Shown here piece after piece: positions 27,204-59,900 of a stretch of 64,000 bases of DNA. Positions within the stretch are counted from its first letter, which is position 1; every line of letters starts with the position of its first letter. This DNA is from Parcubacteria group bacterium Gr01-1014_8 (GTDB lineage: Bacteria > Patescibacteriota > Minisyncoccia > Phycocordibacterales > UBA2100), in NCBI GenBank assembly GCA_007376385.1, contig VMGC01000005.1:96001-160000 (forward strand), written 5' to 3'. The notes under the pieces were generated by a model. It was given only the letters and a program-made list of their open reading frames with translations, had not been told where the DNA came from and searched no databases. The position numbers and the translations under genes were made by a program.

Positions 27204-27215
27204 TATGAATACCCT

Positions 27216-43324: not shown

Positions 43325-43351
43325 GTTTTAACAGGTTAGAAAAAAGTTCCT

Positions 43352-43618: not shown

Positions 43619-44157
43619 ACGGGGCAATGCGGGCGAATACACAGTGGTACGTTGTCACCGGAGGTCCCAGCTCCGGCAAAACGACGACGGTAAATATATT
43701 GAAAGAGCGCGGATACAAGACGACCATTGAGCACGCGCGCCATTACATAGACACGAAGCGCGTCACAGGGAAGACCACGGATGAGATACGCGCGAATCAG
43801 GTAGCATTTCAACAAGGCGTTCTCGATATGCAAATACGAGAGGAGAAGGCCCTCTCAAGGGACGAGGTAGTTTTTCTTGACCGGGCAGTTCCCGATGCGC
43901 TCGCATATTACCGTTTTCAATCTCTGCCAGAAGATGAGAAGCTGCAAAACGCTCTCCGGAGTGCGTCGTATAAAAAGGTATTCATTCTGGATCCACTCCC
44001 GCTTGCTCCTGATTATGCCCGCACTGAAGATGAGACAGCGCAGAAACGATTACACGAGTTGCTCACCGAAGTATATGAGTCTCTCGGTTTTCCGGTTGTT
44101 CATGTTTCTGTTCTTCCACCGAAAGAGCGTGTGGATTTTATTTTGAAGAATCTATAG
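43615..44157 (+). CDS. P-loop NTPase (AAA_28/NadR-C-like small ATPase)
   Basis: Walker A VVTGGPSSGKTT and Walker B VVFLDR in a 180-aa protein. Confidence 0.65.
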   Translation: MNGAMRANTQWYVVTGGPSSGKTTTVNILKERGYKTTIEHARHYIDTKRVTGKTTDEIRANQVAFQQGVLDMQIREEKALSRDEVVFLDRAVPDALAYYRFQSLPEDEKLQNALRSASYKKVFILDPLPLAPDYARTEDETAQKRLHELLTEVYESLGFPVVHVSVLPPKERVDFILKNL

Positions 44158-44211
44158 CAAAAGTCCGTCCGCCAAATTGGCGAGCGGGCTTTGCAGTGAA
44201 GAGCTAAAATT

Positions 44212-44334
44212 CTATTTTTTCGATATCTGTTGCCACAACCAGATGCCAACGAGAACCAGGTCCACAAGCACTATGATCACAAAGAGAGAGCCAAAAATGC
44301 CTGCTCCGCCCATCATTCCGTATCCACCCATCAT
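44212..44334 (-). CDS. 40-aa Gly/Met-rich single-TM peptide (MMGGYGMMGGAGIFGSLFVIIVLVDLVLVGIWLWQQISKK)
   Basis: Translated by hand from the minus strand; it is below the ORF-track size cut-off. Similar MGG-repeat micro-proteins often precede metal-resistance genes, but that link is inference. Confidence 0.3.
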   Translation of the reverse strand: MMGGYGMMGGAGIFGSLFVIIVLVDLVLVGIWLWQQISKK

Positions 44335-44527
44335 ATGAGAAATAGTTTTACTGCTAGTAAGGCGACCTCCGGCTAGTATACCCCATGAGATGAATCATTC
44401 ATCGTAAATTGGAGACATAATTTTAGGGTAAAAAGTCCCATTTGATGTCTGAAACTGTACGTTTTTCTATCTCACGGGGTATACCCTGGTATCTTGCGTT
44501 CATTTTGTCTAGGTATAGAGTGGGGAT

Positions 44528-44905
44528 GTGGACATGCGAGCATATACACCTTTGTTTCTCGCTATCGTCGTTATGGCGGCGGTTTTCGGGATGCCATTAT
44601 TGCTCTCCGGCCCGATGCACCATGAAATGGGCTGTCCGTTTGATCAAGGAGAGGCAGCAATGTGCGCGATGAGCGTACTTGAACACATGAAGTATTGGCA
44701 GCTCGCGTTTGCAAGCATCGTTCTTGAATTGCTTGCAGTTGCTGCGCTGACGTTTATTGCATATGGAAAGTGGAAAGGCATTGCACCTCGAACGCCGGGC
44801 TTCGGGAGAATACTCGCACACAGTCATGTACCAGCGAGACCGACCTTGTTCCAGGAACTTTTTTCGCGAGGAATACTTAATCGTAAAGAATCCTACATTT
44901 TCTAG
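44528..44905 (+). CDS. hypothetical membrane protein with a Met/His/Cys-rich loop
   Basis: Two TM helices flanking GPMHHEMGCPFDQGEAAMCAMSVLEHM, a possible metal-binding loop. Confidence 0.45.
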   Translation: MDMRAYTPLFLAIVVMAAVFGMPLLLSGPMHHEMGCPFDQGEAAMCAMSVLEHMKYWQLAFASIVLELLAVAALTFIAYGKWKGIAPRTPGFGRILAHSHVPARPTLFQELFSRGILNRKESYIF

Positions 44906-45192
44906 TTTTTGCTTTAGCAGTTAACTAGAAAATGTATGGAACATACAAGCGCAATTTTTGTAACAGTACTTACGATCGGTCTCTTTGGGCTTATCATAGG
45001 TTTAGCTTCTGGCTACAACTTGGGTCTGCACAGGCTTGGCGCGCCGTCTATCGGCAACCACATCATGTCTAATGGTTACATCATGAAAGATGGTTCTATG
45101 GGCATGTAAAAGTGCGAGCCGCTTGCTTGGCATCCGCCAAGCAAGCGGCCTCCCGCACCTCTCAAACAATTAAACGGATAAATAGTACACTC

Positions 45193-45606
45193 ATGAAAAC
45201 AATACTTATCGGCGGCATCGTCATATTGCTTCTCATCGGCGGGGCATGGTGGACGAAGAGCCTTCAAAAGAGCGATCCGGATGTCGTATCAAGAAACGGC
45301 CTACACTGGCATCCGACGCTTGCCATATATGTGAAGGGTGAAAAACAGGACATACCGAAGGGTATAGGACTTGGGGCAACGCATCTTCCGATGCACACGC
45401 ACGATGACCTTCCTATTATTCACCTCGAATTCGGCAGCGTTGTCAGAAAGGAAGACTTGATGCTCGGACAATTCTTCAAGAATTGGGGAAAAGACATGCA
45501 CTCGTTCGGAACAAATGTACACATGACGGTCAACGGGGAAACGAATACTGAGTTCGAGAACTACAGCATGCACGATAAAGACGTAATAGAATTGCACTAT
45601 GACTAA
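45193..45606 (+). CDS. membrane-anchored periplasmic protein with His/Met-rich motifs
   Basis: N-terminal TM, then LHWHP...HLPMHTHDD...MHSFGTNVHMT. Overlaps the MCO start by 8 nt, so an operon is likely. Confidence 0.5.
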   Translation: MKTILIGGIVILLLIGGAWWTKSLQKSDPDVVSRNGLHWHPTLAIYVKGEKQDIPKGIGLGATHLPMHTHDDLPIIHLEFGSVVRKEDLMLGQFFKNWGKDMHSFGTNVHMTVNGETNTEFENYSMHDKDVIELHYD

Positions 45607-47140
45607 GGCACAACTATTCAGTATTTTTCTCGCCATAGCGGTTCTAGGGATCGCTATGTATACGACTCAAGGGTATCTCTGGCCCGCGTCTCCTGTTGTG
45701 GCGAGTCAGGTGGTAGAGCTTGCGGACGGCGCCACATACGAGCTCACTGCGAGCGCAGTTGAAAAGGAAATAGGCGGTAGGACGTATCGCATGCTCGCGT
45801 ACAACGGTTCCATACCCGGTCCGCTCATTAAAGTTGCACAAGGTTCAGAAGTGACCATTAACTTTACGAACGATACCGGCATGAAGACGCTGCTCCATTC
45901 GCACGGAGTCCGCATGGACAACGCGTTCGACGGCTCGCAGACATCGCAAAAAGAAATGGAGCCTGGCGAGACATTCTCGTATACGCTTACGTTTCCCGAT
46001 GCGGGCATGTACTGGTACCACCCGCATGTACGGGAGGATTATCAGCAGGAGCTTGGGCTCTATGGTAACTTCCTTGTCGTTTCAGTAGACGCGAACTATT
46101 GGTCGCCGGTAAACCGCGAAATACCGCTCTTCCTCGATGACCTTCTCATCGAAGGCGGGAATATCGAGTTAAGCACGCGCGGCGCAGATAGAACGCTCAT
46201 GGGCCGATTCGGCAACGTCATGTTGATAAACGGCGACGACAATTACACGCTTTTAGCTAAGAAAGGGGAAGTCATCCGATTCTACGTAACGAATTCAGCC
46301 AATGTACGACCGTTCAACTTTGCGATCGACGGCGCGCGGCTCAAGCTGGTTGGCGCGGACAACGGCGCGTACGAACACGATGCGTGGAAGGATTCGGTTC
46401 TTATCGGACCGTCGGAACGAGCGATAGTAGAAGTCTTGTTCGACAAAAGCGGTTCTTTCTCCCCGCAGAACCGAACGCCTAATAGAACGTACACATTGGG
46501 GCGCATAGATGTGTCAGCCGAAACCATTGGGGTCTCGTACGCTAATGAATTTGCAGAGTTGCGGACACACGAGGCGACGGTGCGAAGCATTGATGCGCTC
46601 CGTCCGTTATTCGCAAAGGTCCCGGACAAGCGCATTTCGCTTTCTATCGACATGATGGGGGGAATGATGGGTGGAGGCGGTCAGCACAGGATGTCGGACG
46701 GCTCGATGATGGACAACGGCATGACGATGGGAATTCCTGAAGGTGGCATAGAGTGGGAGGACGATATGCAGATGATGAATGCGATGTCGGATGCAGATTC
46801 AGCAAAATGGAAAATAGTCGACGAGGATACTCGAAAAGAGAATATGGATATTGATTGGTCGTTCAAGCACGGCGAGCCTGTGAAGATCCGCATATTCAAC
46901 GACCCGAGATCCATGCATCCCATGCAGCATCCGATACACTTTCACGGTCAGCGATTTCTCGTCGTGGCGCGTGACGGCGTCCCACAGACAAATCTCGTAT
47001 GGAAAGATACGGTACTCGTAAAAGCCGGTGAGACGGTTGATATTGTGCTCGACACATCAAATCCAGGGAAATGGATGGCCCACTGCCATATCGCGGAACA
47101 CCTTGAAGCGGGGATGATGTTCACCTTCAAGGTCGAATAG
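45599..47140 (+). CDS. multicopper oxidase (three-cupredoxin-domain, CueO/laccase-like)
   Basis: Copper ligand motifs HSHG, WYHPHV, HPIHFHG and C-terminal HCHIAEHLEAGMM (type-1 Cu Cys plus type-3 His). Met-rich insert (MMGGMMGGGG...MMDNGMTMG) as in CueO. Confidence 0.9.
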   Translation: MTKAQLFSIFLAIAVLGIAMYTTQGYLWPASPVVASQVVELADGATYELTASAVEKEIGGRTYRMLAYNGSIPGPLIKVAQGSEVTINFTNDTGMKTLLHSHGVRMDNAFDGSQTSQKEMEPGETFSYTLTFPDAGMYWYHPHVREDYQQELGLYGNFLVVSVDANYWSPVNREIPLFLDDLLIEGGNIELSTRGADRTLMGRFGNVMLINGDDNYTLLAKKGEVIRFYVTNSANVRPFNFAIDGARLKLVGADNGAYEHDAWKDSVLIGPSERAIVEVLFDKSGSFSPQNRTPNRTYTLGRIDVSAETIGVSYANEFAELRTHEATVRSIDALRPLFAKVPDKRISLSIDMMGGMMGGGGQHRMSDGSMMDNGMTMGIPEGGIEWEDDMQMMNAMSDADSAKWKIVDEDTRKENMDIDWSFKHGEPVKIRIFNDPRSMHPMQHPIHFHGQRFLVVARDGVPQTNLVWKDTVLVKAGETVDIVLDTSNPGKWMAHCHIAEHLEAGMMFTFKVE

Positions 47141-47190
47141 CCGGAGTGATGGTGTACTATTCAGAGACTAGCAGTAATGTATCAAGACAT

Positions 47191-47364
47191 ATGTCATGTA
47201 AAACATGCGGCGGCGCAACAGAAGGTTATAAGTGCGATGTCTGTGGCACCGAGGCGAAAGAGCACGATGACAAGCATTCGTGCGGAGGGCAGCACTGCAT
47301 GCAGAAGTGCGCGATGTGCAATGAGGCGGAAACGAAATGCAGCTGCAGTTCAGTCGAGAGGTAA
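47191..47364 (+). CDS. 57-aa Cys-rich metal-binding protein (metallothionein-like)
   Basis: MSCKTCGGATEGYKCDVCGTEAKEHDDKHSCGGQHCMQKCAMCNEAETKCSCSSVER has 10 Cys arranged as CxxC/CxC pairs. It lies immediately downstream of the MCO. Confidence 0.5.
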   Translation: MSCKTCGGATEGYKCDVCGTEAKEHDDKHSCGGQHCMQKCAMCNEAETKCSCSSVER

Positions 47365-47471
47365 CATGCTGCCTAGGCGCGAGACTGGCGCGGACAATGG
47401 GCGGGAGGGCAGATAGAGAAAAAAGGACGGCTCTGCCGTCCTTTTCTTGCGGCTTTCGAGCTGCTCAAAGC

Positions 47472-47711
47472 TCAAATTTTAATGAGACTCAATTTCTTTT
47501 TTCGGGACCATTGTTTTATCTCAAACTCGCGCTTAAGTGCTGAACTTCTATTCCTCTTTTTTTCCGAATACAATACTCTTACAACGCCTCTGCTTCGTGT
47601 GTAATTACCACCGAGTCCTTTCTGGTGTTCCTTGAAACGACGTCGTATATCCATCGTGATGCCCGTATATATAGAGCTATCTTTGCACTCTATGATGTAT
47701 ACCCAGTACAT
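47472..47711 (-). CDS. small GIY-YIG nuclease-domain protein
   Basis: MYWVYIIECKDSSIYTGITMDIRRRFKEH matches the GIY-x10-YIG motif plus the conserved Arg and Glu. Confidence 0.8.
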   Translation of the reverse strand: MYWVYIIECKDSSIYTGITMDIRRRFKEHQKGLGGNYTRSRGVVRVLYSEKKRNRSSALKREFEIKQWSRKKKLSLIKI

Positions 47712-47881
47712 TATGTCCGTCGCTTCTTGCGTGTCTCAATTTTACTTTCTATAAGTTTCGTCCAACCTAAGATCTCTATCGCGCTTAATACAGCCTCCTT
47801 TTCTTCTTCATTCAAGATATTTTTGTGCAGCAACACAGTCAAAATATCTATTGCTTTCTTGTCTTCCATAGGTTTCTTCAT
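47711..47881 (-). CDS. 56-aa small protein translationally coupled to the GIY-YIG gene
   Basis: Hand-translated: MKKPMEDKKAIDILTVLLHKNILNEEEKEAVLSAIEILGWTKLIESKIETRKKRRT. Its stop overlaps the GIY-YIG start (TAATG). Confidence 0.3.
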   Translation of the reverse strand: MKKPMEDKKAIDILTVLLHKNILNEEEKEAVLSAIEILGWTKLIESKIETRKKRRT

Positions 47882-47954
47882 AGTATCGCATTACAGCGTG
47901 GAAGATCTGTCTCTCTGCCGGGCAGATCCAGAGCGATCGATGAGAGGAAAATCG

Positions 47955-48332
47955 CTAAAGAGCTGGAGGCGGCAAAGTCTGTTTTCGCAGTTTCCACCAC
48001 CCGACGACAATCGGGAGGAAAAACGTGAGGGCGTAGTATAAATACACATCTAATTTGTAGTAGCCGTCCGCCGGTTGGAAGGCTTTGTACAGGAAGAAGT
48101 AATCGCAGACGATGGCGATCAGCACCCAGGCAGCGCCGACGAGTGCGTAGTATTGCACCGTACTCCCGTTAATTTTCTTCAAGAGCACCCACGTCGTGAT
48201 GACAATCCCGATTGGTGTGATGATCCATCCAATTGCCGCAGAGGACACAAGCGTAAACAGGATGATGCCAAGCGCATACCCGATAAGCCAGAGCAGGAGT
48301 CCCCACCCGATTGTGTCTTTCAGAAGCTGCAT
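47955..48332 (-). CDS. four-TM membrane protein, paralog of 55064..55444
   Basis: Shares ...IGWI(I/L)TPIGV(V/L)IT(T/L)WVL(L/F)KKI...FKPADGYYKLDVYLYYALT...VGWW/YK... with the second copy. Confidence 0.55.
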   Translation of the reverse strand: MQLLKDTIGWGLLLWLIGYALGIILFTLVSSAAIGWIITPIGIVITTWVLLKKINGSTVQYYALVGAAWVLIAIVCDYFFLYKAFQPADGYYKLDVYLYYALTFFLPIVVGWWKLRKQTLPPPAL

Positions 48333-48358
48333 GTTCACGCGTTGATTATATCTCATTT

Positions 48359-48904
48359 TTAAAACAGCCTTATTTTCGCGTACGAAGATCCGTCTCCTAT
48401 TCGTCCCTTGCCAATGTTTGTAAGACGTACCTGGCCTTGCGGATTAAATGCGCAAAATGTTGTCTTTCTCCCTTCCGGTCCGACAAGCATCCGGACGCGG
48501 CGTTCGTACAGCGGCAGCTTGTGAAGTTCCGCACGAAGGATGTCCATAGTATTCGTATCTCGTACTATCCATCCTACGTGCCAAGTATCGATATCGGGCT
48601 CCACTTCGAGTACCACATAATTTCTCCATCCGCCAATAAGCGGAATATGAAATAGGGGACCTGCACCGCTCTTTATTGATGATGCATCATCACCCTCGAT
48701 CACCACGCATTTTTTTAAGTCTATAGATGCTATTTCATCGTCATTGAATTTCTGAGCGTGCCATGCATGCGACTCTTGCGGCCGCTCGAATAGAGCCATC
48801 GACATAAGCCGCATGAATGGAGACATCGCGTAATCAATCAACTGCCACGACATGTGCAGGGACCTCGGCTTCATGGTTCTAGTGTAGCAAGTACCCAACT
48901 TCAA
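48359..48904 (-). CDS. hypothetical cytoplasmic protein
   Basis: 181-aa ORF with balanced composition. No family recognised. Confidence 0.45.
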   Translation of the reverse strand: MKLGTCYTRTMKPRSLHMSWQLIDYAMSPFMRLMSMALFERPQESHAWHAQKFNDDEIASIDLKKCVVIEGDDASSIKSGAGPLFHIPLIGGWRNYVVLEVEPDIDTWHVGWIVRDTNTMDILRAELHKLPLYERRVRMLVGPEGRKTTFCAFNPQGQVRLTNIGKGRIGDGSSYAKIRLF

Positions 48905-48917
48905 ATCATTCCCCCTG

Positions 48918-49616
48918 CTATGAAATCGCTGGTGGTGGCCACGTATGCGAGATCATCACAAGCGCCACATAAAACGTTAGGTGGATCATGTAGTTGTATA
49001 CGAAACCGCTCGGAACACGCAGGATCAAGTAGGGAAATATGAATGCGGAAGCAACGGCGCCGAGTGTCATGACCATCGTATATGGCGTGGGCGCGCCGCC
49101 GATTGCAAAGAGCAGAATGTGCACGCCGCCGAAACATACTGCGTATACAATGGATGTTTTTTTAACCGAACGAAATGTTGTAGCGAGTGCCAAGATGAGT
49201 GCAGCTATCAATACTTGCTGGATCAAAATATCAAGCGCTTTCGGGAGAAAGTACCACGGTGTTGCGAATATAATATCGGTATATTGCGCGATGCGAGGTA
49301 CCTGCGGAATCGGAAGCTGTGAAAGGACGAAGAGCATAAAGAAAATGAATGCGCCATACGCTCCACAGAGTAGTCCATATACCCAGACACGATTTTCGGT
49401 CGGGAGCCATTTGGAGAAAATATCCCAAAAAACATACACGCTGATCAAAAGCCACACCACATAGTAGAGCGTGATCGCAACCGGGGTATTGTTGTAACTG
49501 AGATCAACTCCGAGAATGGGGAGGAACGTGTAGAAGCCGATGTTTACGGCGGCCCATAACGCCGCTATCTTACCAAGCGTTTTGTAGAGGGGGACGCGTA
49601 AATGTTCGATGGCCAT
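48918..49616 (-). CDS. hypothetical seven-TM membrane protein
   Basis: Hydropathy. Its C-terminal ~75 aa are duplicated, inverted, at 49774..50004. Confidence 0.55.
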   Translation of the reverse strand: MAIEHLRVPLYKTLGKIAALWAAVNIGFYTFLPILGVDLSYNNTPVAITLYYVVWLLISVYVFWDIFSKWLPTENRVWVYGLLCGAYGAFIFFMLFVLSQLPIPQVPRIAQYTDIIFATPWYFLPKALDILIQQVLIAALILALATTFRSVKKTSIVYAVCFGGVHILLFAIGGAPTPYTMVMTLGAVASAFIFPYLILRVPSGFVYNYMIHLTFYVALVMISHTWPPPAIS

Positions 49617-49773
49617 GATTGTGCGAGTGCGCGTAATTGTACACGAATATGGCTACGAAGGTCGTAGCCACGCTGAATTGTATGTCGTTATTTTTTGATG
49701 AGCCCTAAGCACATCACCGAATATATGCGGTCGGATTTTCAAATGACCAGTTTCCTCCCTGGCATATGCCATC

Positions 49774-50004
49774 TTGGTGCTCTACCTTGAGTTCGGTGCC
49801 GCACATGTGCTTTTACTGCTGGCGGTGTCTCCGACTCAATATGCCGCAATCATGACAATCGGCGCGCTGGTCTCAACACTCATATTTCCGTACTTGATGT
49901 TGCGTATACGCGGAGGTTTTGTTATTTCGTATACCATCCATCTTGTCTTTTACATCATTTTGGCGACACTGTTGCACACGTGGCCGCCGGATCACACGGG
50001 ATAA
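49774..50004 (+). pseudogene. inverted partial duplicate (C-terminal fragment) of the 48918..49616 membrane protein
   Basis: MVLYLEFGAAHVLLLLAVSPTQYAAIMTIGALVSTLIFPYLMLRIRGGFVISYTIHLVFYIILATLLHTWPP aligns with VCFGGVHILLFAIGGAPTPYTMVMTLGAVASAFIFPYLILRVPSGFVYNYMIHLTFYVALVMISHTWPP. Confidence 0.45.
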
Positions 50005-50058
50005 AAACTTTCAGACGAACAGTCCCGAAATCTGCGCAGGACGTGGTGATGACCCCGC

Positions 50059-50475
50059 TTACTTTGTCTCTAGTCGGATGCTTGTTCCTGCTTTATTGGT
50101 GCGGTAAATATATGTTTCTCCTTTCGCGAGCATTTCGACGGTAAATCCTGGTACTAATGCCTGAAGGCAGCTCTCCGCTGGTCCACCAAGTCCGAGACAG
50201 CCGTCGGTCCACGTGGTCTCCGTTATCTGCATAATTACTATGCTTTTCTCCTCAACAGAAAGCTTTGAGGCAAGGTCTTTGCGAGCTACGGCTGCCGCGG
50301 GCTCTACGGGGAGGTCGTGAACTATGCTGCCTTGTTGAGGATTCTCGCCAGAGGTAACAGTCATCTGGTTCGTGACAGATGATTCTGTCGTTGGTTGATC
50401 CGCAAAAATCAAATACGCACCTGCTCCAAGAATTAGGACGCCAATAATTGCGAACAATGTTGTGTTGGTGTTCAT
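50059..50475 (-). CDS. secreted hypothetical protein
   Basis: Signal/TM segment (LFAIIGVLILGAGAYLIFA) then a soluble domain containing two Cys. Confidence 0.5.
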   Translation of the reverse strand: MNTNTTLFAIIGVLILGAGAYLIFADQPTTESSVTNQMTVTSGENPQQGSIVHDLPVEPAAAVARKDLASKLSVEEKSIVIMQITETTWTDGCLGLGGPAESCLQALVPGFTVEMLAKGETYIYRTNKAGTSIRLETK

Positions 50476-50617
50476 ATGAATAGTATAGACGATGATTCCA
50501 AAATAATCTTACGCACTAGCGTGATGCGATAATCGTACTCCGAACATCACAAAAAGACTGACTGTGTGGGTTGGCGTTGTCGCGCTCATACTGCTGGATC
50601 GTCACTTTATCTTGCGA

Positions 50618-50692
50618 GGATAGCGAGAGAAATGCGAGTGCTTGCACTCGCATTTCCGAGCGACGCAGCAAGCAAAGGTTTGAAACCTTTCA
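50618..50692 (-). repeat. Family C-prime dyad-symmetric repeat, copy 1 (overlaps the stop codon of 50690..51226)
   Basis: CTTGCGAGGATAGCGAGAGAAATGCGAGTGC-ttg-CACTCGCATTTCCGAGCGACGCAGCAAGCAAAGGTTTGAAACCTTTCA. Perfect 13-bp inner hairpin. Confidence 0.8.
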
Positions 50693-51226
50693 TAGTTCCA
50701 CCAAAACGCTCGTTTTTATGCTGCCGTCTTTTGAAGACTCGTCATAGCGCTCGATGCGGAATCCACCTTTCTGGATAAATGCGGCGAATCTGGTTCCAGT
50801 GAGTGCATCGTTGCAGTCCACTTTGCCGAGCATTATCTTGTGATCCTCGATCTCATTCATTTCTTTGCCGGTGCAGCCCATCGCGGTACCAAGATCGTAG
50901 CGCTTCGTTGTGCCGTCCAAAGTGGACACGTCGGCCGCAATCGTCTGTTCGTTGATGCGGTAATCGTCCTCACTCTTGATCTGGGGATTCGCCTTCTCGA
51001 TGCTCCAGGTTACTTTCATGACTGTCGTTGCGTCAAGATTCCACAGTGGGAGGAGTGAACCGCCGGTGAGGAAGAAGCCGAGGTCTCCGACTATGCGGAT
51101 TGGAGGCGGTGCATCCTCCGCCGGTTGGACAGCGTTGTAATGGATGACCGAGCCAATGTAGCGGACGCCAAGAAAGAGCCCGACGATAATAATAACGATT
51201 GAAAACATTGTTAGATATCGATTCAT
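50690..51226 (-). CDS. membrane-anchored hypothetical protein
   Basis: Start trimmed to MNRYLTMFSIVIIIVGLFLGV, because the ORF-track N-terminal extension is just the translated C-prime repeat. The soluble domain contains two Cys. Confidence 0.5.
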   Translation of the reverse strand: MNRYLTMFSIVIIIVGLFLGVRYIGSVIHYNAVQPAEDAPPPIRIVGDLGFFLTGGSLLPLWNLDATTVMKVTWSIEKANPQIKSEDDYRINEQTIAADVSTLDGTTKRYDLGTAMGCTGKEMNEIEDHKIMLGKVDCNDALTGTRFAAFIQKGGFRIERYDESSKDGSIKTSVLVEL

Positions 51227-51237
51227 ATACTTATTTT

Positions 51238-51316
51238 TTGTCTTGCGAGGATAGCGAGTGAAGCGAAAGCACGCTTTCGCTTTCGAGCGTCGCAGCAAGT
51301 AAAGGTTTACCTTTCA
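51238..51316 (-). repeat. Family C-prime dyad-symmetric repeat, copy 2 (overlaps the stop codon of the XRE HTH gene)
   Basis: CTTGCGAGGATAGCGAGTGAAGCGAAAGC-acg-CTTTCGCTTTCGAGCGTCGCAGCAAGTAAAGGTTTACCTTTCA. Confidence 0.8.
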
Positions 51317-51507
51317 TATTCTAATAATTCTCCCGGCTGACAATCCAGCGCTTTGCAGATCGCCTCGAGGGTTGAAAACCGGATTGCCCGTGCTTTTCCG
51401 TTTTTTAATATAGAAATATTGGCCATCGTGATGCCTACCTTTTCCGTAAGCTCGGTAACGCTCATCTTCCGCTTGGCGAGCATGACATCTAAATTGACGA
51501 TTATCAT
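51307..51507 (-). CDS. XRE-family (Cro/C1-type, YozG-like) HTH transcriptional regulator
   Basis: 66 aa. MSVTELTEKVGITMANISILKNGKARAIRFSTLEAICKALDCQPGELLEY is a canonical HTH_XRE. Confidence 0.8.
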   Translation of the reverse strand: MIIVNLDVMLAKRKMSVTELTEKVGITMANISILKNGKARAIRFSTLEAICKALDCQPGELLEYER

Positions 51508-51965
51508 ACCGTTAGGTCGTTCTCTGATTTAATGTCGATAGCATTCTGCAGGAGCTTCTCCAGGACCGCCGCAAAAACGCCGGTGATGAGCGGAGCCATG
51601 ATAAAGACGAGTCCGATGGGTACGGCACCCGGCGCGTCGTCTTTGTCTGCGATATAGATGATGACTGGCATGCCGGCTGCATACAATGTGCTGATAGCAA
51701 ACGCACAATATTTAATAGTCTTGATGGCCTTCACTGATTCCTCCGAGAAAGCGGTGTTCTTGTCTATGTAGCGAAGCAAGAGCAAGCCCTGATAGAGCGC
51801 ATAGAAGAAGGGAATAGCCGCTGCACCCATAATGAGCAACAGGGGGAGATACATTCCCGCATTTCCCGAGAGACTCACCCCGGCGATGATGATGCATAGT
51901 CCGAGCACCGCGAGTCCTAGACAGTAGATAACTACTTTCAGAAATAGAGTCGAGCCCTTTTTCAT
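51504..51965 (-). CDS. DUF2975-family membrane protein (common partner of YozG-like HTH regulators)
   Basis: Four TM helices. 4-nt overlap with the downstream HTH gene, reproducing the DUF2975 + HTH_XRE pair that is widely conserved in Firmicutes and others. Confidence 0.65.
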   Translation of the reverse strand: MKKGSTLFLKVVIYCLGLAVLGLCIIIAGVSLSGNAGMYLPLLLIMGAAAIPFFYALYQGLLLLRYIDKNTAFSEESVKAIKTIKYCAFAISTLYAAGMPVIIYIADKDDAPGAVPIGLVFIMAPLITGVFAAVLEKLLQNAIDIKSENDLTV

Positions 51966-52092
51966 ACAATCAAGTCTATCCTGTCATTTATCGTTTGTCA
52001 ATATATTGTTATCGTTTATATGCTGTTGCCAGGATCTTTAGCAGACGTATAGTTTCGAAGGTGGAAGTAGTCTTGTTTTTGAAAAAGTCGAA

Positions 52093-52704
52093 TTGGTAGC
52101 TCTGTTGCCCATAATTGACGCTCTTAAGTTAAATTTGATGCTTGAATTTCTTAGTAATTACTCCGGCGCTCTAACTGGAGTCGCTGCGCTGATAGGTGCC
52201 TGCGTTGCTATCTACGGTATCAGTGAGTGGAAGCGCCAATTTAAATGGCGGATTGAATATGAAACCGCTCGGCGATATATCAGGGCTCTTTATGACGTGC
52301 GTGAAGCGATAAATCGGGACGTCAGAAACCCAACTATTTCTCATGCAGAAATGAAAGCTGCCGAGGAGGCAGCACAGTTTAAAGGCCTAGATGTTACTAG
52401 AGCAGATACACAATGGATTATTTACAATCGCCGATGGGAAAAAGTCTCAGTTGCAAGAACGAATTTGAGGGAAGCGCTGCTCGAAACGGAGGTACTCTGG
52501 GGAAACGAAATAAAAAATGCGCAATCTGCTTTAGACGCACTGATTGGGATTTTATATGGAAAAATATGGGCAATTTTTCACAATGTTCCGACGCCGGATG
52601 CTGACATATATTTGTATCATACGGACGGCAAAGATAGTTTTACTGCAGAAATAGACAATGTTATTGAGGGCGTCGCAAAACCACTCCGCTCCCACTTACG
52701 CTAG
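52093..52704 (+). CDS. hypothetical single-TM protein; AT-rich, and flanked by gene remnants
   Basis: 203 aa with an N-terminal TM helix (GALTGVAALIGACVAIYGI) and a Glu/Arg-rich cytoplasmic domain. No family recognised. Confidence 0.45.
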   Translation: MVALLPIIDALKLNLMLEFLSNYSGALTGVAALIGACVAIYGISEWKRQFKWRIEYETARRYIRALYDVREAINRDVRNPTISHAEMKAAEEAAQFKGLDVTRADTQWIIYNRRWEKVSVARTNLREALLETEVLWGNEIKNAQSALDALIGILYGKIWAIFHNVPTPDADIYLYHTDGKDSFTAEIDNVIEGVAKPLRSHLR

Positions 52705-52740
52705 CTTCACGATTGTTTAAGACTTTTGAAAATGCTAGGT

Positions 52741-52870
52741 TCTTGCGGTGATGTTGACCATCCATTCGATACCAAATTTTTCGGTGAGCATGCCGAACGT
52801 GTCACCCCGCGGTAGTTGAGGATGGGAGCCTGACTTCACCAATCCCGTCACCGACGCACAATCGGCTCAA
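52741..52870 (-). pseudogene. 3-prime remnant of a VOC/PhnB-like gene (paralog of 55595..56023)
   Basis: Minus-strand translation gives ...GDTFGMLTEKFGIEWMVNITAR*, aligning with the C-terminus ...GSYFGMFRDKYGIEWMVEFPAAK* of the intact gene. Upstream similarity decays quickly. Confidence 0.5.
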
Positions 52871-52933
52871 GCGCTAAAAGTACCTTTTCAAAAAGGCAAA
52901 TCGGTATCCAAAATATAGATTTGTAATTTAGAC

Positions 52934-53719
52934 TTATTTTCGAGTCGCATACAGAACCGCTACTGTACCGAATACTAAAAATGGCCATAACAGCCACGTT
53001 GCAAGAGGAATCCCAAGAAAAAGCGAATCTAAGATTGTGCTAGTCTGCCATGTATAGGCCCACTGCTTTGCCGCGATGTTTGGAAGTTCTTGGATAAGCA
53101 TGAAAACGTATGTCGCAGAGAGCGCCGCCACAAGTGTCGCGCGCCAATTCTGTAAAAAGTCTCGGACAAACGAACTGTGGGAACGTCGTTCTGAGATGAT
53201 AGAAAGCATTGCGCAGACAACAAGCAGAAACGAATATGAACCGAGCACAATAGAAAATCTTGAATGAAGGTTAGCAAAGAAATACAGCGTAAGAATTGTT
53301 GAGGCGATGCAAATGACTTTTGCGATGCGTACAGGATTTTGGCGCACTTCGGTCGCAGGAGTTTCCTTTGCGCCGAAAACTTTTCTCCCATACAAATATG
53401 ACAGCACTATTATGAATCCGCCTGCAGGGTATGCCCATGCAAACAAAAGAATATATTCAACAAGCGAATCGTAATTATAGTGCCATGCGTGCGCGAGACG
53501 CAGACCACTAAATTCAACCGCGAGCCCGCCCATAAGAAATACAACGTACAGAAGAATAATTTTCCCACGCGAGCGCAATTCTGCGGAGATCGTTGGAATG
53601 AGTAAAAGGAGAAGCCCCAACAGAAGAAATTCAAAGAAATGATTGTAATGAAAGGAATACGCAAGGCTGAGAGAGAGGAGTGTAATGAACCCCCCTGCCG
53701 CGACAAGAACCTTGGTCAT
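52934..53719 (-). CDS. hypothetical polytopic membrane protein (~8 TM)
   Basis: Start trimmed to MTKVLVAAGGFITLLSL. The ORF-track N-terminal extension runs through the second VOC remnant. Confidence 0.5.
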   Translation of the reverse strand: MTKVLVAAGGFITLLSLSLAYSFHYNHFFEFLLLGLLLLLIPTISAELRSRGKIILLYVVFLMGGLAVEFSGLRLAHAWHYNYDSLVEYILLFAWAYPAGGFIIVLSYLYGRKVFGAKETPATEVRQNPVRIAKVICIASTILTLYFFANLHSRFSIVLGSYSFLLVVCAMLSIISERRSHSSFVRDFLQNWRATLVAALSATYVFMLIQELPNIAAKQWAYTWQTSTILDSLFLGIPLATWLLWPFLVFGTVAVLYATRK

Positions 53720-53789
53720 GAAGAAAAGTATATCACCCCTACCGCCACACGAACGGCTGGCGTTTTCCTGCGCGACGAGCTCTAAATTA

Positions 53790-53860
53790 CGACTTTTTTG
53801 CGGTGATGTTGACCATCCGTTTCGTTCCGAATTTGTCGGTGAGCATGCCGAACGTGTCAC
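53790..53860 (-). pseudogene. second 3-prime remnant of a VOC/PhnB-like gene
   Basis: Minus-strand translation gives GDTFGMLTDKFGTKRMVNITAK, about 80% nucleotide identity to the 52741 remnant. Confidence 0.45.
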
Positions 53861-53932
53861 CCGCCGCGACTTATCCAAAGGGACGACAGGTGCGATGCCT
53901 GACGAGAGCTTGTGCTATAGTGTGGCCATCAT

Positions 53933-54148
53933 ATGTTGACAACGATATACAAGAAAGTTCGCTCCGGGTACGTTGCATGGGTTGAGGAAATCCCGGGTGT
54001 TAATACACAGGGGGCCACTAAAGCGGAGGCCAAGGCTAATCTTGCAGATGCGCTACGGGAGTTTGTGGCCGCTCGCCGAATGCTCACGAAGCGGGAATCT
54101 GCTCGTGGCGAGTCGCTTGTGCGCGAAAGCATCCCTGCCTTCCGCTAA
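53933..54148 (+). CDS. hicB: HicB-family antitoxin (UPF0150)
   Basis: 71 aa. YVAWVEEIPGVNTQGATKAEAKANLADALREF matches the HicB N-terminal RNase-H-like fold signature. The stop overlaps the hicA start (TAATG). Confidence 0.65.
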   Translation: MLTTIYKKVRSGYVAWVEEIPGVNTQGATKAEAKANLADALREFVAARRMLTKRESARGESLVRESIPAFR

Positions 54149-54342
54149 TGAAGCGAACAGAACTTGAACGGTATTTGCGTGCGCATTCGTGTTACCTGCT
54201 CCGAGAGGGCAGCAAACATTCGGTATTTCACAATACGAAGAATGGCTAGACCTCAACAGTTCCAAGGCATACTGAAATCTTTCCAACACTTGCGCGGAAA
54301 ATCTGCAACGACCTTGGAATTCCACCCATCAGGAAGAAATAG
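54148..54342 (+). pseudogene. hicA: HicA-family toxin gene interrupted by an in-frame TAG (amber) codon
   Basis: MKRTELERYLRAHSCYLLREGSKHSVFHNTKNG-*(TAG, 54247..54249)-TSTVPRHTEIFPTLARKICNDLGIPPIRKK*. Both halves are HicA-like (dsRBD-like fold, conserved GSH and K..L...I). Confidence 0.6.
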
Positions 54343-54355
54343 AAAAGTGTTCTTT

Positions 54356-54601
54356 TTACCGATGAATACAGCCGGCCCAGCAGCAGGGGCGGCGCATGCC
54401 GCTTTTCATCTTTGAAAGCGCCTTCTCGATACGGATATTTCTCGTTTCCGCTTTCTTACCGGAGATTACCCAGCAAATCCATTCATTGCGCGCGAGCGGC
54501 GTAATATCCTCCCACAATGCCCGTACCTTAGGCGTCTGGCTTATGGCATTTCGTAAATCCTCAGGTAGTTTATGTACCGTACCGTTGGCGAGCTTGGTCA
54601 T
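54356..54601 (-). CDS. YdeI/OmpD-associated (DUF1905-like) family protein
   Basis: 81 aa. ...LPEDLRNAISQTPKVRALWEDITPLARNEWICWV... resembles the YdeI C-terminal bacteriocin-protection domain as I recall it. Confidence 0.5.
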   Translation of the reverse strand: MTKLANGTVHKLPEDLRNAISQTPKVRALWEDITPLARNEWICWVISGKKAETRNIRIEKALSKMKSGMRRPCCWAGCIHR

Positions 54602-54646
54602 GGGATCATTCTATCAAATCTCTTACGCTGGGCTCGCAAAGTATAG

Positions 54647-54976
54647 TTATCTTTTGTCGTGCATGGTCACGGCTCTTGGCAAATGTGGTTTTATTTTTTC
54701 GTATTCTCTGTGGCGAGAAATAAGGTCGAAGAACGATTTGCCTGCGTTAGCCAAAATTACGTCATTGTTATAGGGCAACCCGGAGCCCGACAATTGATGC
54801 GTAATTCTTCCCCATACGCCCTGTACCCAGAGTTTTATTTCTTCGGGATTATTGAAATGCTTGACCGCGAGATTGCTATTCTCAATGTAATACTTATCGA
54901 TCCAGTCTATCACGACACTCTCGATCACGTCTCGTGTCGTTGCGTTGAGCTGACGAAATCCTTTGTCTTCTTTCAT
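54647..54976 (-). CDS. hypothetical protein
   Basis: 109-aa ORF, AT-rich. No family recognised. Confidence 0.4.
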   Translation of the reverse strand: MKEDKGFRQLNATTRDVIESVVIDWIDKYYIENSNLAVKHFNNPEEIKLWVQGVWGRITHQLSGSGLPYNNDVILANAGKSFFDLISRHREYEKIKPHLPRAVTMHDKR

Positions 54977-55063
54977 ATAGAAATAGGAAAAAGGCGAGGA
55001 AAAAGAAAAAGATGTCCGACACTTTTTTCTCTTTTTCCAACGACCGCATTCATAGTGTTTTAT

Positions 55064-55444
55064 TTATGTGCCCGAATCGATCATATTTTGAGTTCTGTTC
55101 TTATACCAACCGACTGCGAGGGGGAGAATGAGCGTCAAAGCGTAGTAGAGATATACATCTAACTTGTAGTATCCATCTGCCGGCTTGAATATCATCACGA
55201 GAAATATGTAGTCGAGAACTATCGCAATAAGTGTCCATGCGACCGCGAGGAGAGCATAGTGTTCAAATGATGCGCTTATTTTCTTGAACAGCACCCAAAG
55301 CGTGATCAGTACACCGATCGGCGTAAGGATCCACCCGATCATGGAGGGCGATACTACAAAGAAGAGTACGATGCCAAGCACATAGCCGATGAACCAAAGC
55401 GCAAAACCCCACAAAATCGCATTTTTGTAGAACGCCTTATTCAC
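55064..55444 (-). CDS. four-TM membrane protein, paralog of 47955..48332
   Basis: MNKAFYKNAILWGFALWFIGYVLGIVLF...FKPADGYYKLDVYLYYALTLILPLAVGWYKNR. Confidence 0.55.
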   Translation of the reverse strand: MNKAFYKNAILWGFALWFIGYVLGIVLFFVVSPSMIGWILTPIGVLITLWVLFKKISASFEHYALLAVAWTLIAIVLDYIFLVMIFKPADGYYKLDVYLYYALTLILPLAVGWYKNRTQNMIDSGT

Positions 55445-55594
55445 GCTCTGATTGTATCAGAAGTTCGAACGTCAACTGCCATCCAAAAAAGAATGGTTTT
55501 GTTAAGAGACAAAATCACGTGCTCCTCTGTGTCTCCAATCTTCGAACCTTCTTTACTGCCAATAGAGTGTTTGTACCTCTATAAGCCTATTAAG

Positions 55595-56023
55595 TTATTT
55601 AGCGGCTGGAAACTCAACCATCCACTCGATACCATATTTGTCTCGAAACATGCCGAAATAGGAACCCCAAGGGCTATTAGCCATAGGCATCTCTACAGTG
55701 CCACCTGCCGAAAGCCCGTTGAATATTAGTTCTGCTTCTTCCTTACTCTCTGTACTGACCAAAATTTTACTTCGATTTTCGTTTTCATTCACTTTACCCA
55801 TAAACGCAGGTACGTCATTGGCCATCAACACGTTACTTTTACCGATGGGTAAAGTGATGAGCATAATTTTCTCTGCCTCGGTGTCTGACACTGGAAATTC
55901 TGGACTCGCTAGATCTTTGAAACGAGTAATCTTTGTAAAATCACCCCCAAATATTGATTTATAAAATGTAAACGCTTCTTCAGCATTGCCGTTGAAGTTA
56001 ATCCAAGGATTTATCGTTGTCAC
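55595..56023 (-). CDS. VOC-family PhnB-like protein
   Basis: INPWINFNGNAEEAFTFYKSIFGG...ITLPIGKS...GTVEMPMANSPWGSYFGMFRDKYGIEWMV is the canonical PhnB/3-demethylubiquinone-methyltransferase-like VOC fold. Confidence 0.75.
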   Translation of the reverse strand: MTTINPWINFNGNAEEAFTFYKSIFGGDFTKITRFKDLASPEFPVSDTEAEKIMLITLPIGKSNVLMANDVPAFMGKVNENENRSKILVSTESKEEAELIFNGLSAGGTVEMPMANSPWGSYFGMFRDKYGIEWMVEFPAAK

Positions 56024-56046
56024 ATGATGAGTATATCAGAAGGGTC

Positions 56047-56118
56047 GAACTAATTTGCTCCCCGGGTAGGACTCGAACCTACAACCAACTCCTTAACAGG
56101 GAGCTGCGCTACCATTGC
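56047..56118 (-). tRNA. tRNA-Asn (anticodon GTT)
   Basis: Folded by hand. Acceptor TCCCCGG/CCGGGGA, D-arm GCGC-AATGGTA-GCGC, anticodon arm GCTCC-CTGTTAA-GGAGT (anticodon GTT), T-arm GTAGG-TTCGAGT-CCTAC, discriminator G. CCA is not encoded. Confidence 0.85.
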
Positions 56119-56191
56119 GCTACCGGGGAATGTCCGGCCCAGTATAGACGAATGTGTTAGAATTTCCAGCATAGTCAGTAACCGCATTTTT

Positions 56192-56875: not shown

Positions 56876-58978
56876 TTAAGGAAGCTCTGGCATCGGGATT
56901 TCTGTTCCCGGACACATAAGCATATTTATCATACGCTGTGTTGTCTTATAGACGTAGCCGGTCGGCATGTTTTGCTTGAGGCCGAACGGTATCCATGGAG
57001 CAAGAATTTCATCCGCATACTTTAATTGGAATGCTTTGACAGCACCCCTGGTAGCCGCGTCAAATTCTCCGTTCACTTCAAGAGCAAGCCCCATTTCCTT
57101 GTTTAGGAATTCCTGAAGAATCTTAACGTCATCAGCTGTTTCTTTTCCTTTACCAATGTAAGACGTGAGGAGAATGGCCGAGCACGATGCGCTCGCGACT
57201 TCGCCTGCCACCTCTTCAACAACCGCTTCGCCGATGTCAGACGTAGCAGGTTCTGCCGGCGTTTCAGGTGCGGACGGAGGACACGGAACGCCCCAGCAGA
57301 ATATGACCCCCTCATAAGGAGACGGATCTGTCGTGCCACCGTTGTCCGGTGTAGAAGTGCCCTGCGGCGTTTCTACAGTTTCTGCGCACGGAAGTTCCGT
57401 CTGTATTCCGTCTTCTGGGCAGAGATCGGTCTCTTCTTCCGATACTTCACTGCAATCCTCTTCGCTCAACTGAATGCCATCAGTATCAGGGCAGACATCA
57501 TCGCTTGAGCAGGGACCGATCAACTGGAAGTCAGGATCTTCAGGGCATGCATCCGGAAGGGGAATTTCTATGCACACCGGAGGAATGCCGATATATCCGG
57601 GCGGGCACGACTCGGGAGTTACTTCGTCGCAATCGTTGGTTTCAGAATTGTATACCTGACCTTCCGAGCATGTCGGAATTTCCTCGCAGGTGCTTCCGTT
57701 CCAGGATCCGGCGGGATCGAGTGCGAGGCACTCTTCTTCTGTATCAACAGGGTTTGGCGGGAACGGAGTGTCATCACATACATCACCAATACCGTCGCCA
57801 TCGCTGTCGAGTTGGTCTGCATTTGCGTCAACAGGACAATTGTCTTCCTCGTTTACGACTTCGTCGCCGTCTACATCATCGTCGCAGACATCTCCTATGC
57901 CGTCGCCGTCGCTATCAGCCTGATCGGCGTTCGCGGTAACAGGACAGTTATCCTCTTCATCAGTAATGCCGTCGCCATCCGCGTCAGTATCCGGTGCGGG
58001 AATTTCCACTTCAAATGAGAATACTGCGTCGCCGGACGATTCAGCGCCCGGAGGATTCTGGTGGTACAGCTTCACCGTCACCGTGTATGTGTCCGGTGTC
58101 GAGTAGGCGTGAGAGTTGGTCCAAGGGCCGGAGAATGTTTTGTTGCCGCTCGTCGAACCGTCCGGATCGACAAAATTGAGCGTCGAGAAATCGTCAACAT
58201 TTCCGTCGCCCCAATTTACCTGCACATCGTGCTGGCTGAACTGGCCTACGTAGGGGTCGGCCGAACCGGTACCCGTAAGAGTCAACATGAGGAGCTCAAT
58301 GTCTACAGGCTGGTCGACGGTGACTTGGTAGCCTCCTGTGTCCCCGACAACGTCACCCGTTATGGCAACGCCGTCGATGCGGAAATTCTCTGCGCTATGG
58401 TTTGCACTGTTTCGGAAGCGGATAAGGAAATCGCTATCAGATGATGCGGGCACAGCGACACTTTGCTGTGAGCTCCAGCTCGCAGAGTTTGCGTCCGTAT
58501 CATCGAGCTCGTGGGTCGCGAGCGTGTTCCAATCGGTGTCGCCGTCGCCACACTCATTTTCGTTGCCACTTTCGCTGTATTCTACAACGCCTTTTTCGCC
58601 GTCTTCGGCATCGATATCGCCTCTCCAGTAATAGTTGATGTTGAAGTTTGTGAAGCCGTTAACTCCAGCGTCGCCATCTATTTCGCGGCAAATCCACTCG
58701 CCGTTTGCTATCTTTGCAAAACGTGCGCCGTTTGGGCTCGCCACGTCTTCACCTGAAACCTGCGCGGCGCGTGCGAGCGTTGTGGAATCGTTATCGTTTC
58801 CTTCCTCATCCCAGTTGGAAATGTTGCTAGAATCTGTCACCCCAGTACCGAATGACTCCACGGAAAGAACCGTAGCGGCCATGACGCCCGTGGGGTAGAA
58901 GACCCCTGTGGTGACGAGAATAGTAATAAAGCTCAATACCTTGACCGAAATTGACCCTCTGATGTCGTGCTTAAACAT
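56876..58978 (-). CDS. large secreted surface protein with thrombospondin-type-3-like Ca-binding repeats, a PKD-like domain and a C-terminal PG_binding_1 domain
   Basis: Signal/TM SVKVLSFITILVTTGVFYPTGVMA. Tandem DTDADGDGITDEEDNCPVTANADQADSDGDGIGDVCDDDVDGDEVVNEEDNCPVDANADQLDSDGDGIGDVCDD (DxDxDG TSP3-type repeats). QVNWGDGNVDDF is PKD-like. C-terminus DDVKILQEFLNKEMGLALEVNGEFDAATRGAVKAFQLKY is PG_binding_1-like. Confidence 0.75.
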   Translation of the reverse strand: MFKHDIRGSISVKVLSFITILVTTGVFYPTGVMAATVLSVESFGTGVTDSSNISNWDEEGNDNDSTTLARAAQVSGEDVASPNGARFAKIANGEWICREIDGDAGVNGFTNFNINYYWRGDIDAEDGEKGVVEYSESGNENECGDGDTDWNTLATHELDDTDANSASWSSQQSVAVPASSDSDFLIRFRNSANHSAENFRIDGVAITGDVVGDTGGYQVTVDQPVDIELLMLTLTGTGSADPYVGQFSQHDVQVNWGDGNVDDFSTLNFVDPDGSTSGNKTFSGPWTNSHAYSTPDTYTVTVKLYHQNPPGAESSGDAVFSFEVEIPAPDTDADGDGITDEEDNCPVTANADQADSDGDGIGDVCDDDVDGDEVVNEEDNCPVDANADQLDSDGDGIGDVCDDTPFPPNPVDTEEECLALDPAGSWNGSTCEEIPTCSEGQVYNSETNDCDEVTPESCPPGYIGIPPVCIEIPLPDACPEDPDFQLIGPCSSDDVCPDTDGIQLSEEDCSEVSEEETDLCPEDGIQTELPCAETVETPQGTSTPDNGGTTDPSPYEGVIFCWGVPCPPSAPETPAEPATSDIGEAVVEEVAGEVASASCSAILLTSYIGKGKETADDVKILQEFLNKEMGLALEVNGEFDAATRGAVKAFQLKYADEILAPWIPFGLKQNMPTGYVYKTTQRMINMLMCPGTEIPMPELP

Positions 58979-59160: not shown

Positions 59161-59391
59161 ATGCGCGTAAAAGTGCGTGTTACCGCAAAAGCACGAAGAG
59201 AACTCTTCGAGCAGACCGGCGAATTCGCTTTTTCAGTGTCAGTGAAGGAACCGCGAGAGAGAAATGAAGCAAACACGCGAGTACAACAGCTAATTGCAGA
59301 ACATTTCAATCTTCCAGTGACGTCCATTCGATTTATCACCGGCATGCGTTCTAAAAATAAGGTTTTTGAGGTGGTCCGCCCCGTGAGATAG
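59161..59391 (+). CDS. DUF167 (YggU/UPF0235) family protein
   Basis: MRVKVRVTAKARRE...SVKEPRERNEANTRVQQLIAEHFNLPVTSIRFITGMRSKNKVFEV matches the YggU fold signature. Confidence 0.65.
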   Translation: MRVKVRVTAKARRELFEQTGEFAFSVSVKEPRERNEANTRVQQLIAEHFNLPVTSIRFITGMRSKNKVFEVVRPVR

Positions 59392-59516
59392 CACGACGGC
59401 ACTTCCTGCAAAAATAGGATAGTGTTTGAAGTCTGAATTTCGCAATTATTTCGAATGCATTATCTCATGGGGTACAATAGCTCCATATGGATACACGAAT
59501 AAAGTCGGACTTTACG

Positions 59517-59862: not shown

Positions 59863-59900
59863 GTATACCTTAATGGTGCCGGTCGGCACCCTTAAGGTAC
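59863..59900. repeat. Family A palindromic element, copy A3 (imperfect), after hpf
   Basis: GTATACCTTAATGGTGCCGGTCGGCACCCTTAAGGTAC. Confidence 0.75.

Follow-up and report, generated by a model that had tools for sequence, protein, structure and literature searches.

A decayed accessory patch beside a conserved tRNA-Asn gene in a groundwater Parcubacteria genome

Introduction

tRNA-associated genomic islands and plasticity zones lie directly 3' of a tRNA gene and hold accessory stress and metal genes, toxin-antitoxin (TA) relics and gene stubs at a somewhat lower GC content. Their content differs between relatives, elements bearing a recombinase are found at the same site, and the usual enzyme is a tyrosine integrase. 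Here we describe a patch at 47.4-56 kb of a 64,000-nt stretch of DNA (hereafter the window), part of the 189,832-bp metagenome contig k139_616945 (ENA ERZ27284378; Parcubacteria group bacterium Gr01-1014_8 at NCBI) from groundwater Parcubacteria, which adjoins the 3' end of a tRNA-Asn(GTT) gene and resembles such islands in all of these respects except the enzyme. It differs from them in that integrase and direct repeat of the tRNA 3' end are both absent here, in that it consists mostly of tiny, uncharacterised membrane proteins, and in that the elements found in relatives carry a large serine recombinase. In the literature we found nothing specific to this tRNA site, to tRNA-linked islands or to serine-recombinase elements in this clade.

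The patch is an accessory, decaying region. With a probability of about 0.6, we read it as a decayed mosaic, no longer mobile, at a site beside tRNA-Asn that varies across the clade. A gene map was built from the list of open reading frames (ORFs), the deposited gene calls and Pfam, and was compared with 80 loci of Kaiserbacteria-like genomes; in identity searches the fmt protein of the window was closest to those of Candidatus Kaiserbacteria genomes. These loci were retrieved with an alignment of fmt proteins, which was required, as a single fmt protein used as query of genome contigs returned no loci. The relatives are distant, with fmt identities of at most 73% (63-71% for the nearest with usable contigs), and the closest ones (71-73%) are on contigs that end before the tRNA.

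Results

A conserved block is followed by variable content

The following two features lie next to the patch.

56057-56129, minus strand: tRNA-Asn(GTT), called by ARAGORN and by Rfam (71.4 bits), with its 3' end facing the variable region
56876-58978, minus strand: 700-aa surface protein (TSP700) with TSP_3 repeats and PG_binding, between S30AE and tRNA-Asn

This tRNA is the only one in the window according to both ARAGORN and Rfam, and Rfam at gathering threshold gave no other match over the whole window. On its upstream side a core block is kept in most of the 80 loci (MreB in 69, o91 in 62, def in 79, fmt in all 80 and S30AE in 67). In about half of these loci tRNA-Asn comes after fmt and reads in the same direction, uninterrupted in more than 30. 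In 8 further loci the tRNA-Asn(GTT) gene is split by an insert of 215-580 nt, identified in L014 and L073 as a group I intron (Rfam RF00028, 67-83 bits; L014:4331-4625 and L073:12145-12428); interrupted by the intron, the gene was missed by ARAGORN. Split tRNA-Asn halves are also present in L016, L021, L022, L034, L052 and L071, and the insert of L014 contains an HNH-like ORF (3920-4456).

Beyond this block conservation is lost. From TSP700 to the multicopper oxidase, each gene occurs in 0-3 of the 80 loci, in a patchy manner. The original prediction, drawn from the window alone, had put forward an eroded island at the tRNA and a comparison of synteny as its test; the whole block is not conserved, which leaves the island idea unrefuted. 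A separate observation concerns the surface protein: an ORF of about 700 aa follows S30AE in the closest relatives (71-72% fmt identity; L092:2205-4214) and is absent from more distant ones.

The same families and insertions recur at the site in relatives

Gene content after tRNA-Asn differs from genome to genome, yet the same families recur. The following homologues of genes of the window, with their protein identities, were found at the locus.

L066: VOC/PhnB-like protein (75%), 1.7 kb after tRNA-Asn, and OmdA/YdeI-type protein (75%)
L058: four-transmembrane protein of the TM4 family (59% to TM4a), 2.7 kb after tRNA-Asn
L078: XRE regulator (85%) and DUF2975 protein (42%), 3.5 kb after tRNA-Asn
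L014: OmdA (73%), multicopper oxidase (57%) and o137 (65%)
L073: multicopper oxidase (61%)
L047: Cu-ATPase (80%)
L048: o138 (41%), near tRNA-Asn

For several of these proteins the identity is higher than that of fmt in the same genomes (50-59%), which suggests that accessory genes may be exchanged within the clade.

A Pfam survey of 147 ORFs past tRNA-Asn in 23 relatives revealed two large serine recombinases, and short folding elements were found at the tRNA in other genomes.

L029:12689-14401, minus strand: large serine recombinase with Resolvase, Recombinase and Zn_ribbon_recom domains, adjoined by an AAA_25 protein
L069:11769-13472, minus strand: large serine recombinase with the same three domains, adjoined by a D5_N/DUF5906 primase
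L078:14108-14240: short folding element (-59 kcal/mol, z -4.4), with no Rfam family

The two recombinases (567-570 aa) are 70% identical, and the 3' ends of their genes share about 15 nt with that of tRNA-Asn; they look like parts of intact elements integrated at the same tRNA. Exact repeats of 15-20 nt of the tRNA 3' end occur 115-465 nt downstream of it in L013, L033, L056, L078 and L080 (two copies in the last), and L043 has an imperfect repeat, with one small gene between tRNA and element. The elements closed by such repeats are about 115-170 nt long and fold strongly, beginning with an inverted copy of the T-arm and ending with the copy of the tRNA 3' end. Moreover, 17 contigs end past the tRNA inside the sampled flank, 8 of them no more than 500 nt from it where about 1 is expected (binomial p = 2e-6); this clustering likely reflects strain-level heterogeneity at the tRNA. 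Judged from these sequence patterns, the 3' end of tRNA-Asn truly serves as an insertion site in the clade.

The patch contains gene relics beside intact genes

Two groups of membrane-protein genes bear on the history of the patch.

47955-48356, minus strand: TM4a, 133 aa, four transmembrane (TM) segments, family match to TM4b
55064-55444, minus strand: TM4b, 126 aa, four TM segments, member of a large uncharacterised family
48918-49616, minus strand: mem232, multi-TM protein of 232 aa, from an uncharacterised family of modest size (208 cluster representatives with E<=1e-3; no match in Pfam)
49753-50004, plus strand: mem232-like 3' relic, the last ~83 codons, head-to-head with mem232

TM4a and TM4b are 62% identical in amino acids over their full length (E 6e-47). 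The original prediction had called them paralogues with a shared motif, and they are indeed homologous, the motif being exact in TM4b and changed at one residue (K to Q) in TM4a; they are not copies made in place. The best foreign homologues reach 75% identity for TM4b and 71% for TM4a, whereas the two share only 62% with each other. In the same way, the relic matches mem232 residues 154-228 over 49753-49989 (plus strand) with 47.5% identity (E 3e-18), as compared with 54-70% to other representatives of the family, and upstream of it stop codons occur in every frame. It had been described as an inverted partial duplicate of mem232; the inversion and the resemblance are real, but it is not a local copy. 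We thus rejected duplication in place for both the TM4 pair and the mem232 fragment, as the partners are less alike than foreign homologues. Going by these identities, they are separate arrivals or old paralogues rather than recent copies.

The TM4 family itself is large: across Patescibacteria it counts more than 2146 proteins (60-75% identity), and one match is labelled Methanoperedens. It has no Pfam, NCBIfam, PHROG or PADLOC match. Its genes adjoin small stress or detoxification genes in two unrelated Patescibacteria (L089:8001-8384 and L090:8001-8384). The gene row is Hemerythrin-VOC-PhnB-DUF1428-DoxX-TM4 in one of these genomes and ArsR-thioredoxin-ArsP-GIY-YIG-NUDIX-TM4 in the other. 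The two rows resemble the VOC-TM4b and TM4a-o56-GIY-YIG neighbourhoods of the window.

Next to the tRNA lies a VOC gene, two truncated relatives of which occur farther into the patch.

55595-56023, minus strand: intact VOC/PhnB-like (YjdN-like) gene, 142 aa (PF06983, E 4e-10; PF00903, E 3e-8)
53784-53975, minus strand: VOC 3' relic B, last 22 codons clear and ~62 codons weak
52934-53719, minus strand: mem261, multi-TM protein of 261 aa, a gene call between the two VOC stubs
52729-52812, minus strand: VOC 3' relic A, last 22-23 codons and stop, a 79-nt direct repeat of relic B

The intact gene scores 40.6 bits against a cut-off of 24, with an NCBIfam YjdN match under its cut-off; 33 nt separate its start codon from the tRNA-Asn 3' end, and its third-codon-position GC (GC3) is 0.40. 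The two stubs (52729-52812 and 53784-53867) are 84% identical over 79 nt, and each is 62% identical to the intact gene. The peptides that they encode, GDTFGMLTEKFGIEWMVNITART and GDTFGMLTDKFGTKRMVNITAKKS, each closed by a stop codon, align with residues 118-140 of the intact protein at 48-57% identity. The upstream part of relic B contains an internal stop and a compensated indel and overlaps the hicB start. All three VOC 3' ends are on one strand, at spacings of 1055 and 1805 nt. Regarding mem261 (GC3 = 0.45), only a single homologue (70%) was found among 5.8 billion proteins, on a contig of 932 bp. Its ORF, listed as 52934-53878, was corrected to 52934-53719, the N-terminal extension being the VOC stub read in another frame. 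Att-type integration, tandem duplication followed by deletion, and two decayed tandem paralogues all fit as origins of the stubs.

The fourth relic belongs to a TA locus.

54149-54342, plus strand: hicA pseudogene with an in-frame TAG and a frameshift, read from the sequence
53933-54148, plus strand: intact hicB-like antitoxin ORF, 71 aa (PF21748 UPF0150-like, under the cut-off)

No intact HicA toxin ORF (PF07927) is present at 54149-54342, and the repaired peptide matches PF07927 HicA_toxin with E 3e-8. The hicB-like ORF matches PF21748 with E 1.4e-5 and 25.4 bits, under the 27.3-bit cut-off. A broken hicAB locus had been predicted here, and the breakage is confined to hicA. As in a HicAB type II TA module, a HicB-like ORF is paired with a HicA-family frame; in contrast to it, the toxin gene is inactivated, the antitoxin match is sub-threshold and the order is hicB-hicA instead of the usual hicA-hicB.

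The window lacks mobility genes

No recombinase domain was found in any called gene of the window, in agreement with the earlier remark that no integrase remains. Within the patch, every intergenic gap of more than 200 nt is filled by a relic or a repeat, which leaves no space where an integrase pseudogene could hide. Ten proteins of the region gave neither a PHROG match at E<0.001 nor a PADLOC match, and an anti-phage defence island is not what was found. An integron was also considered: there is no integrase, and the structured repeats described below (C/C') show no RYYYAAC/GTTRRRY cores by eye, the formal attC model not having been used. GC3 differs between neighbouring genes, from 0.40 up to 0.67. 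Tetranucleotide distance is greatest in the 52-56 kb block, and two other parts of the window come close to it.

The flexible segment probably includes the copper genes

On the far side of the patch, the following features come into play.

39252-47364, plus strand: genes for a Cu P-type ATPase, small membrane proteins, a dNK-like protein, o123, o137, the multicopper oxidase and a Cys-rich 72-aa ORF (gene calls, Pfam)
38383-39210, minus strand: gene for a metallo-beta-lactamase-fold (MBL-fold) hydrolase, the likely distal anchor, 17 kb from the tRNA
47146-47364, plus strand, and 37543-37719, minus strand: Cys-rich small ORFs, beside the copper genes and the MBL/HAD genes respectively
44372-44400 / 59453-59481 and 44460-44479 / 59379-59398: short inverted repeats with cores ACCCCATGAGAT and CCCCGTGAGATAG

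The original prediction had taken the copper operon as the boundary of the region. This does not agree with L004 and L009, in which tRNA-Asn is followed directly by an MBL orthologue, 64% identical to 38383-39210, nor with the patchy presence of copper genes at the locus (L014, L073, L047). Because the MBL gene directly follows tRNA-Asn in L004 and L009, the flexible segment probably extends from 39.2 to 56.05 kb (~17 kb), copper genes included, and by gene order the copper operon is probably cargo and not boundary. L026, L038 and L046 likewise have MBL homologues a few kb or less from fmt. A hairpin near 47421-47446 divides the patch from the convergent multicopper-oxidase operon.

Homologues of the Cys-rich ORF at 37543-37719 reappear in L031, L048, L057 and L059, at 1.5-5.6 kb past fmt. 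As for the inverted repeats, one arm of each pair precedes the S30AE gene and the other precedes o123 of the copper block, and the shared cores are possibly a shared operator. We rejected them as the ends of an invertible 15-kb segment, as they are only 20-29 nt motifs and no S30AE relic is present near 44.3 kb.

Remaining genes and repeats of the patch

The other features of the patch, and intergenic repeats elsewhere in the window, are as follows.

54647-54976, minus strand: o109, ORF of 109 aa, low GC (43.6%)
54356-54601, minus strand: OmdA/YdeI-type protein, 81 aa (PF13376, E 1e-17)
52138-52704, plus strand: o188, ORF of 188 aa (203 aa from a TTG at 52093), low GC
51504-51965, minus strand: DUF2975 membrane protein (PF11188, E 3e-37)
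51307-51507, minus strand: XRE/HTH_26 regulator (PF13443, E 2e-25)
51237-51322, plus strand: C' structured repeat, starting exactly at the XRE stop codon
50690-51208, minus strand: o172, gene call with an N-terminal TM segment, between two C' repeats
50607-50700, plus strand: C' structured repeat, starting exactly at the o172 stop codon
50059-50475, minus strand: o138, gene call with an N-terminal TM segment
48359-48874, minus strand: o171, gene call, 2 nt upstream of TM4a
47711-47881, minus strand: o56, low GC (37-39%, with its GIY-YIG neighbour)
47472-47711, minus strand: small GIY-YIG protein (PF01541, E 5e-19), low GC (37-39%)
3136-3232 (plus), 27116-27213 (plus) and 61716-61813 (minus): other copies of the C/C' family, intergenic
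22600-22635, 26454-26489, 59865-59899 and 62267-62302: second repeat family, near-perfect 36-nt palindromes (ATACCTTAGTGGTGCCGACCGGCACCACTAAGGTAT), intergenic

Along with the tRNA, the VOC gene and its two stubs, the XRE/DUF2975 pair, the C' repeats and the low-GC ORFs are present at or near where the original prediction had placed them. The XRE and DUF2975 genes overlap by 4 nt (51504-51507); with both domains strong and the pair found near tRNA-Asn in L078 as well, they correspond to the known XRE/HTH_26 + DUF2975 arrangement and show nothing unusual. For o188 (GC 44.8%, GC3 0.40; window GC 50.6%) there is no significant family match, only a weak PHROG one (E 0.009), and for o109 no significant match in Pfam (one sub-threshold, E 0.008), NCBIfam, PHROGs or PADLOC; both are found in 0 of the 80 loci. 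o172, whose ORF was corrected from 50690-51298 to 50690-51208, and o171 have no family match in the same four databases. Small GIY-YIG genes recur at the tRNA-Asn locus in relatives, and one adjoins a TM4 gene in L090.

The C/C' family has five copies in the window. In its fold, which shows 9 covarying pairs, an outer stem of 5 bp is conserved, the long inner hairpin carries compensatory changes, and a further small hairpin resembles a T-arm. In length (~85-95 nt), intergenic position, outer stem and compensatory inner hairpin these copies resemble REP/MITE-like repeats; they differ from them in that they have no Rfam match, the C' copies start at stop codons and bracket a single gene, and no transposase was identified. 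Promoter and terminator scans gave results at chance level only.

Discussion

In the reading that we prefer, a lineage-specific flexible segment would sit directly 3' of tRNA-Asn(GTT), anchored by MreB-def-fmt-S30AE, and the patch at 47.4-56 kb would form its tRNA-proximal half. The cargo would be a mosaic of VOC/PhnB-like, OmdA/YdeI, two TM4, XRE and DUF2975 genes and near-orphan membrane proteins, with the copper-resistance genes farther out. Several separate acquisition events, followed by deletion and point decay, might have produced it, and the broken hicA, both VOC 3' ends and the last third of a mem232-like gene would be the stubs left behind. The genes may have entered by site-specific integration of mobile elements by the tRNA, of the kind that is intact in two relatives, or by recombination between the conserved flanks. 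From the relatives only, we infer that integration at the tRNA delivered this content; likewise, we infer the order of events and the far boundary at the MBL gene. With respect to the repeated insertion and erosion at the tRNA that had first been proposed, decay, variability and use of the site in relatives hold, whereas neither att repeat nor recombinase is found in the window.

Several results weigh against this reading. Two genes past MreB, on the other flank, are likewise found in 0 of the 80 loci, and part of the variability is therefore fast general gene turnover in the clade. In tblastn searches for a relic of the L029 and L069 serine recombinases, the window gave only matches with E>0.2. 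No repeat of the tRNA 3' end (22-mer and 18-mer, up to 3 mismatches) exists in the window, and the last 32 nt of the tRNA reached a best local score of 10 against 37-56 kb, as compared with a shuffled mean of 12; the direct repeat by which the island was to be delimited is thus absent above the shuffled control. A very short identical core is enough for serine recombinases, and long att repeats are not expected; the missing repeat therefore counts only weakly against integration. The compositional shift is modest, with a GC of 46.7% in the region against 50.6% in the window (SD 3.2% in 1-kb windows, ~1.2 SD). The MBL gene of L026 is found on the opposite side of the tRNA, which makes the role of this gene as ancestral neighbour insecure. 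Finally, the sample contains no empty site from a close relative.

Much of this would also be expected if the region were an ordinary lineage-specific one and its adjacency to the tRNA incidental. Genomes of the candidate phyla radiation (CPR) would keep short syntenic housekeeping blocks, while the rest turns over by general deletion, illegitimate recombination and scattered gain. The unconserved genes past MreB, the lack of att repeat and recombinase in the window, the small shift in composition and the distance of the relatives are all in line with this account, and with no close relative in the sample it stays alive. However, it does not explain why contig ends cluster directly after the tRNA, why recombinase elements and tRNA-end repeats are found at exactly this site in seven or eight relatives, why the same accessory families recur after the tRNA at identities above those of housekeeping genes, or why four relics lie within 8.6 kb. 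We thus consider it unlikely, although it is a serious competitor. By contrast, a single decayed prophage or integrative element, acquired at once, seems very improbable. Such an element might be suspected from the position at the tRNA 3' end, the TA relic, the XRE regulator and the lower GC; yet there are no structural, replication or recombinase genes, GC3 is strongly mixed among neighbours, and the components are found singly and in different combinations in relatives. A single prophage, like a defence island, was rejected on the lack of PHROG and PADLOC matches and of phage genes.

The VOC stubs allow a more local scenario, in which the VOC 3' ends are att-type repeats. A small element with mem261 would have integrated into the 3' end of a VOC gene, bringing a replacement for it in the manner of islands that target tRNA genes, and serial events would have built the three VOC ends. 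It is true that the direct repeats bracket exactly one near-orphan gene, that the three ends share one strand, 1055 and 1805 nt apart, and that the asymmetry it predicts is seen, relic B extending weakly over 62 codons and relic A being limited to the terminal 23. This asymmetry would, however, arise equally from tandem duplication of VOC-mem261 followed by deletion, or from two decayed paralogues, and tandem VOC genes exist in L089. Furthermore, the window lacks a recombinase, and the search gave no second example, the only mem261 homologue being on its 932-bp contig. We regard this scenario as improbable. A broader version, a cassette-like capture system run by a recombinase, would join mem261 between VOC ends, o172 between C' repeats and the units of relatives, empty or with one gene, that the tRNA-end elements close; it would operate next to tRNA-Asn in Kaiserbacteria and might be serviced in trans by recombinases like those of L029 and L069; it is an equally long shot.

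To conclude, the decayed mosaic beside tRNA-Asn would be a routine accessory patch at a tRNA gene, the remnant of an island of known kind in a little-studied lineage. It does not overturn current understanding. Our results support the notion that genomes of the CPR/Patescibacteria may have a fixed flexible site, at tRNA-Asn near def-fmt, through which stress and metal-resistance genes would be exchanged within the clade, and that serine-recombinase elements use this tRNA-Asn site. They also draw attention to TM4, a very large conserved four-TM family outside the domain, phage and defence collections searched, which recurs by VOC/PhnB, DoxX, arsenic-resistance, NUDIX and GIY-YIG genes. Thus, the finding may be modestly useful for the biology of the CPR/Patescibacteria.

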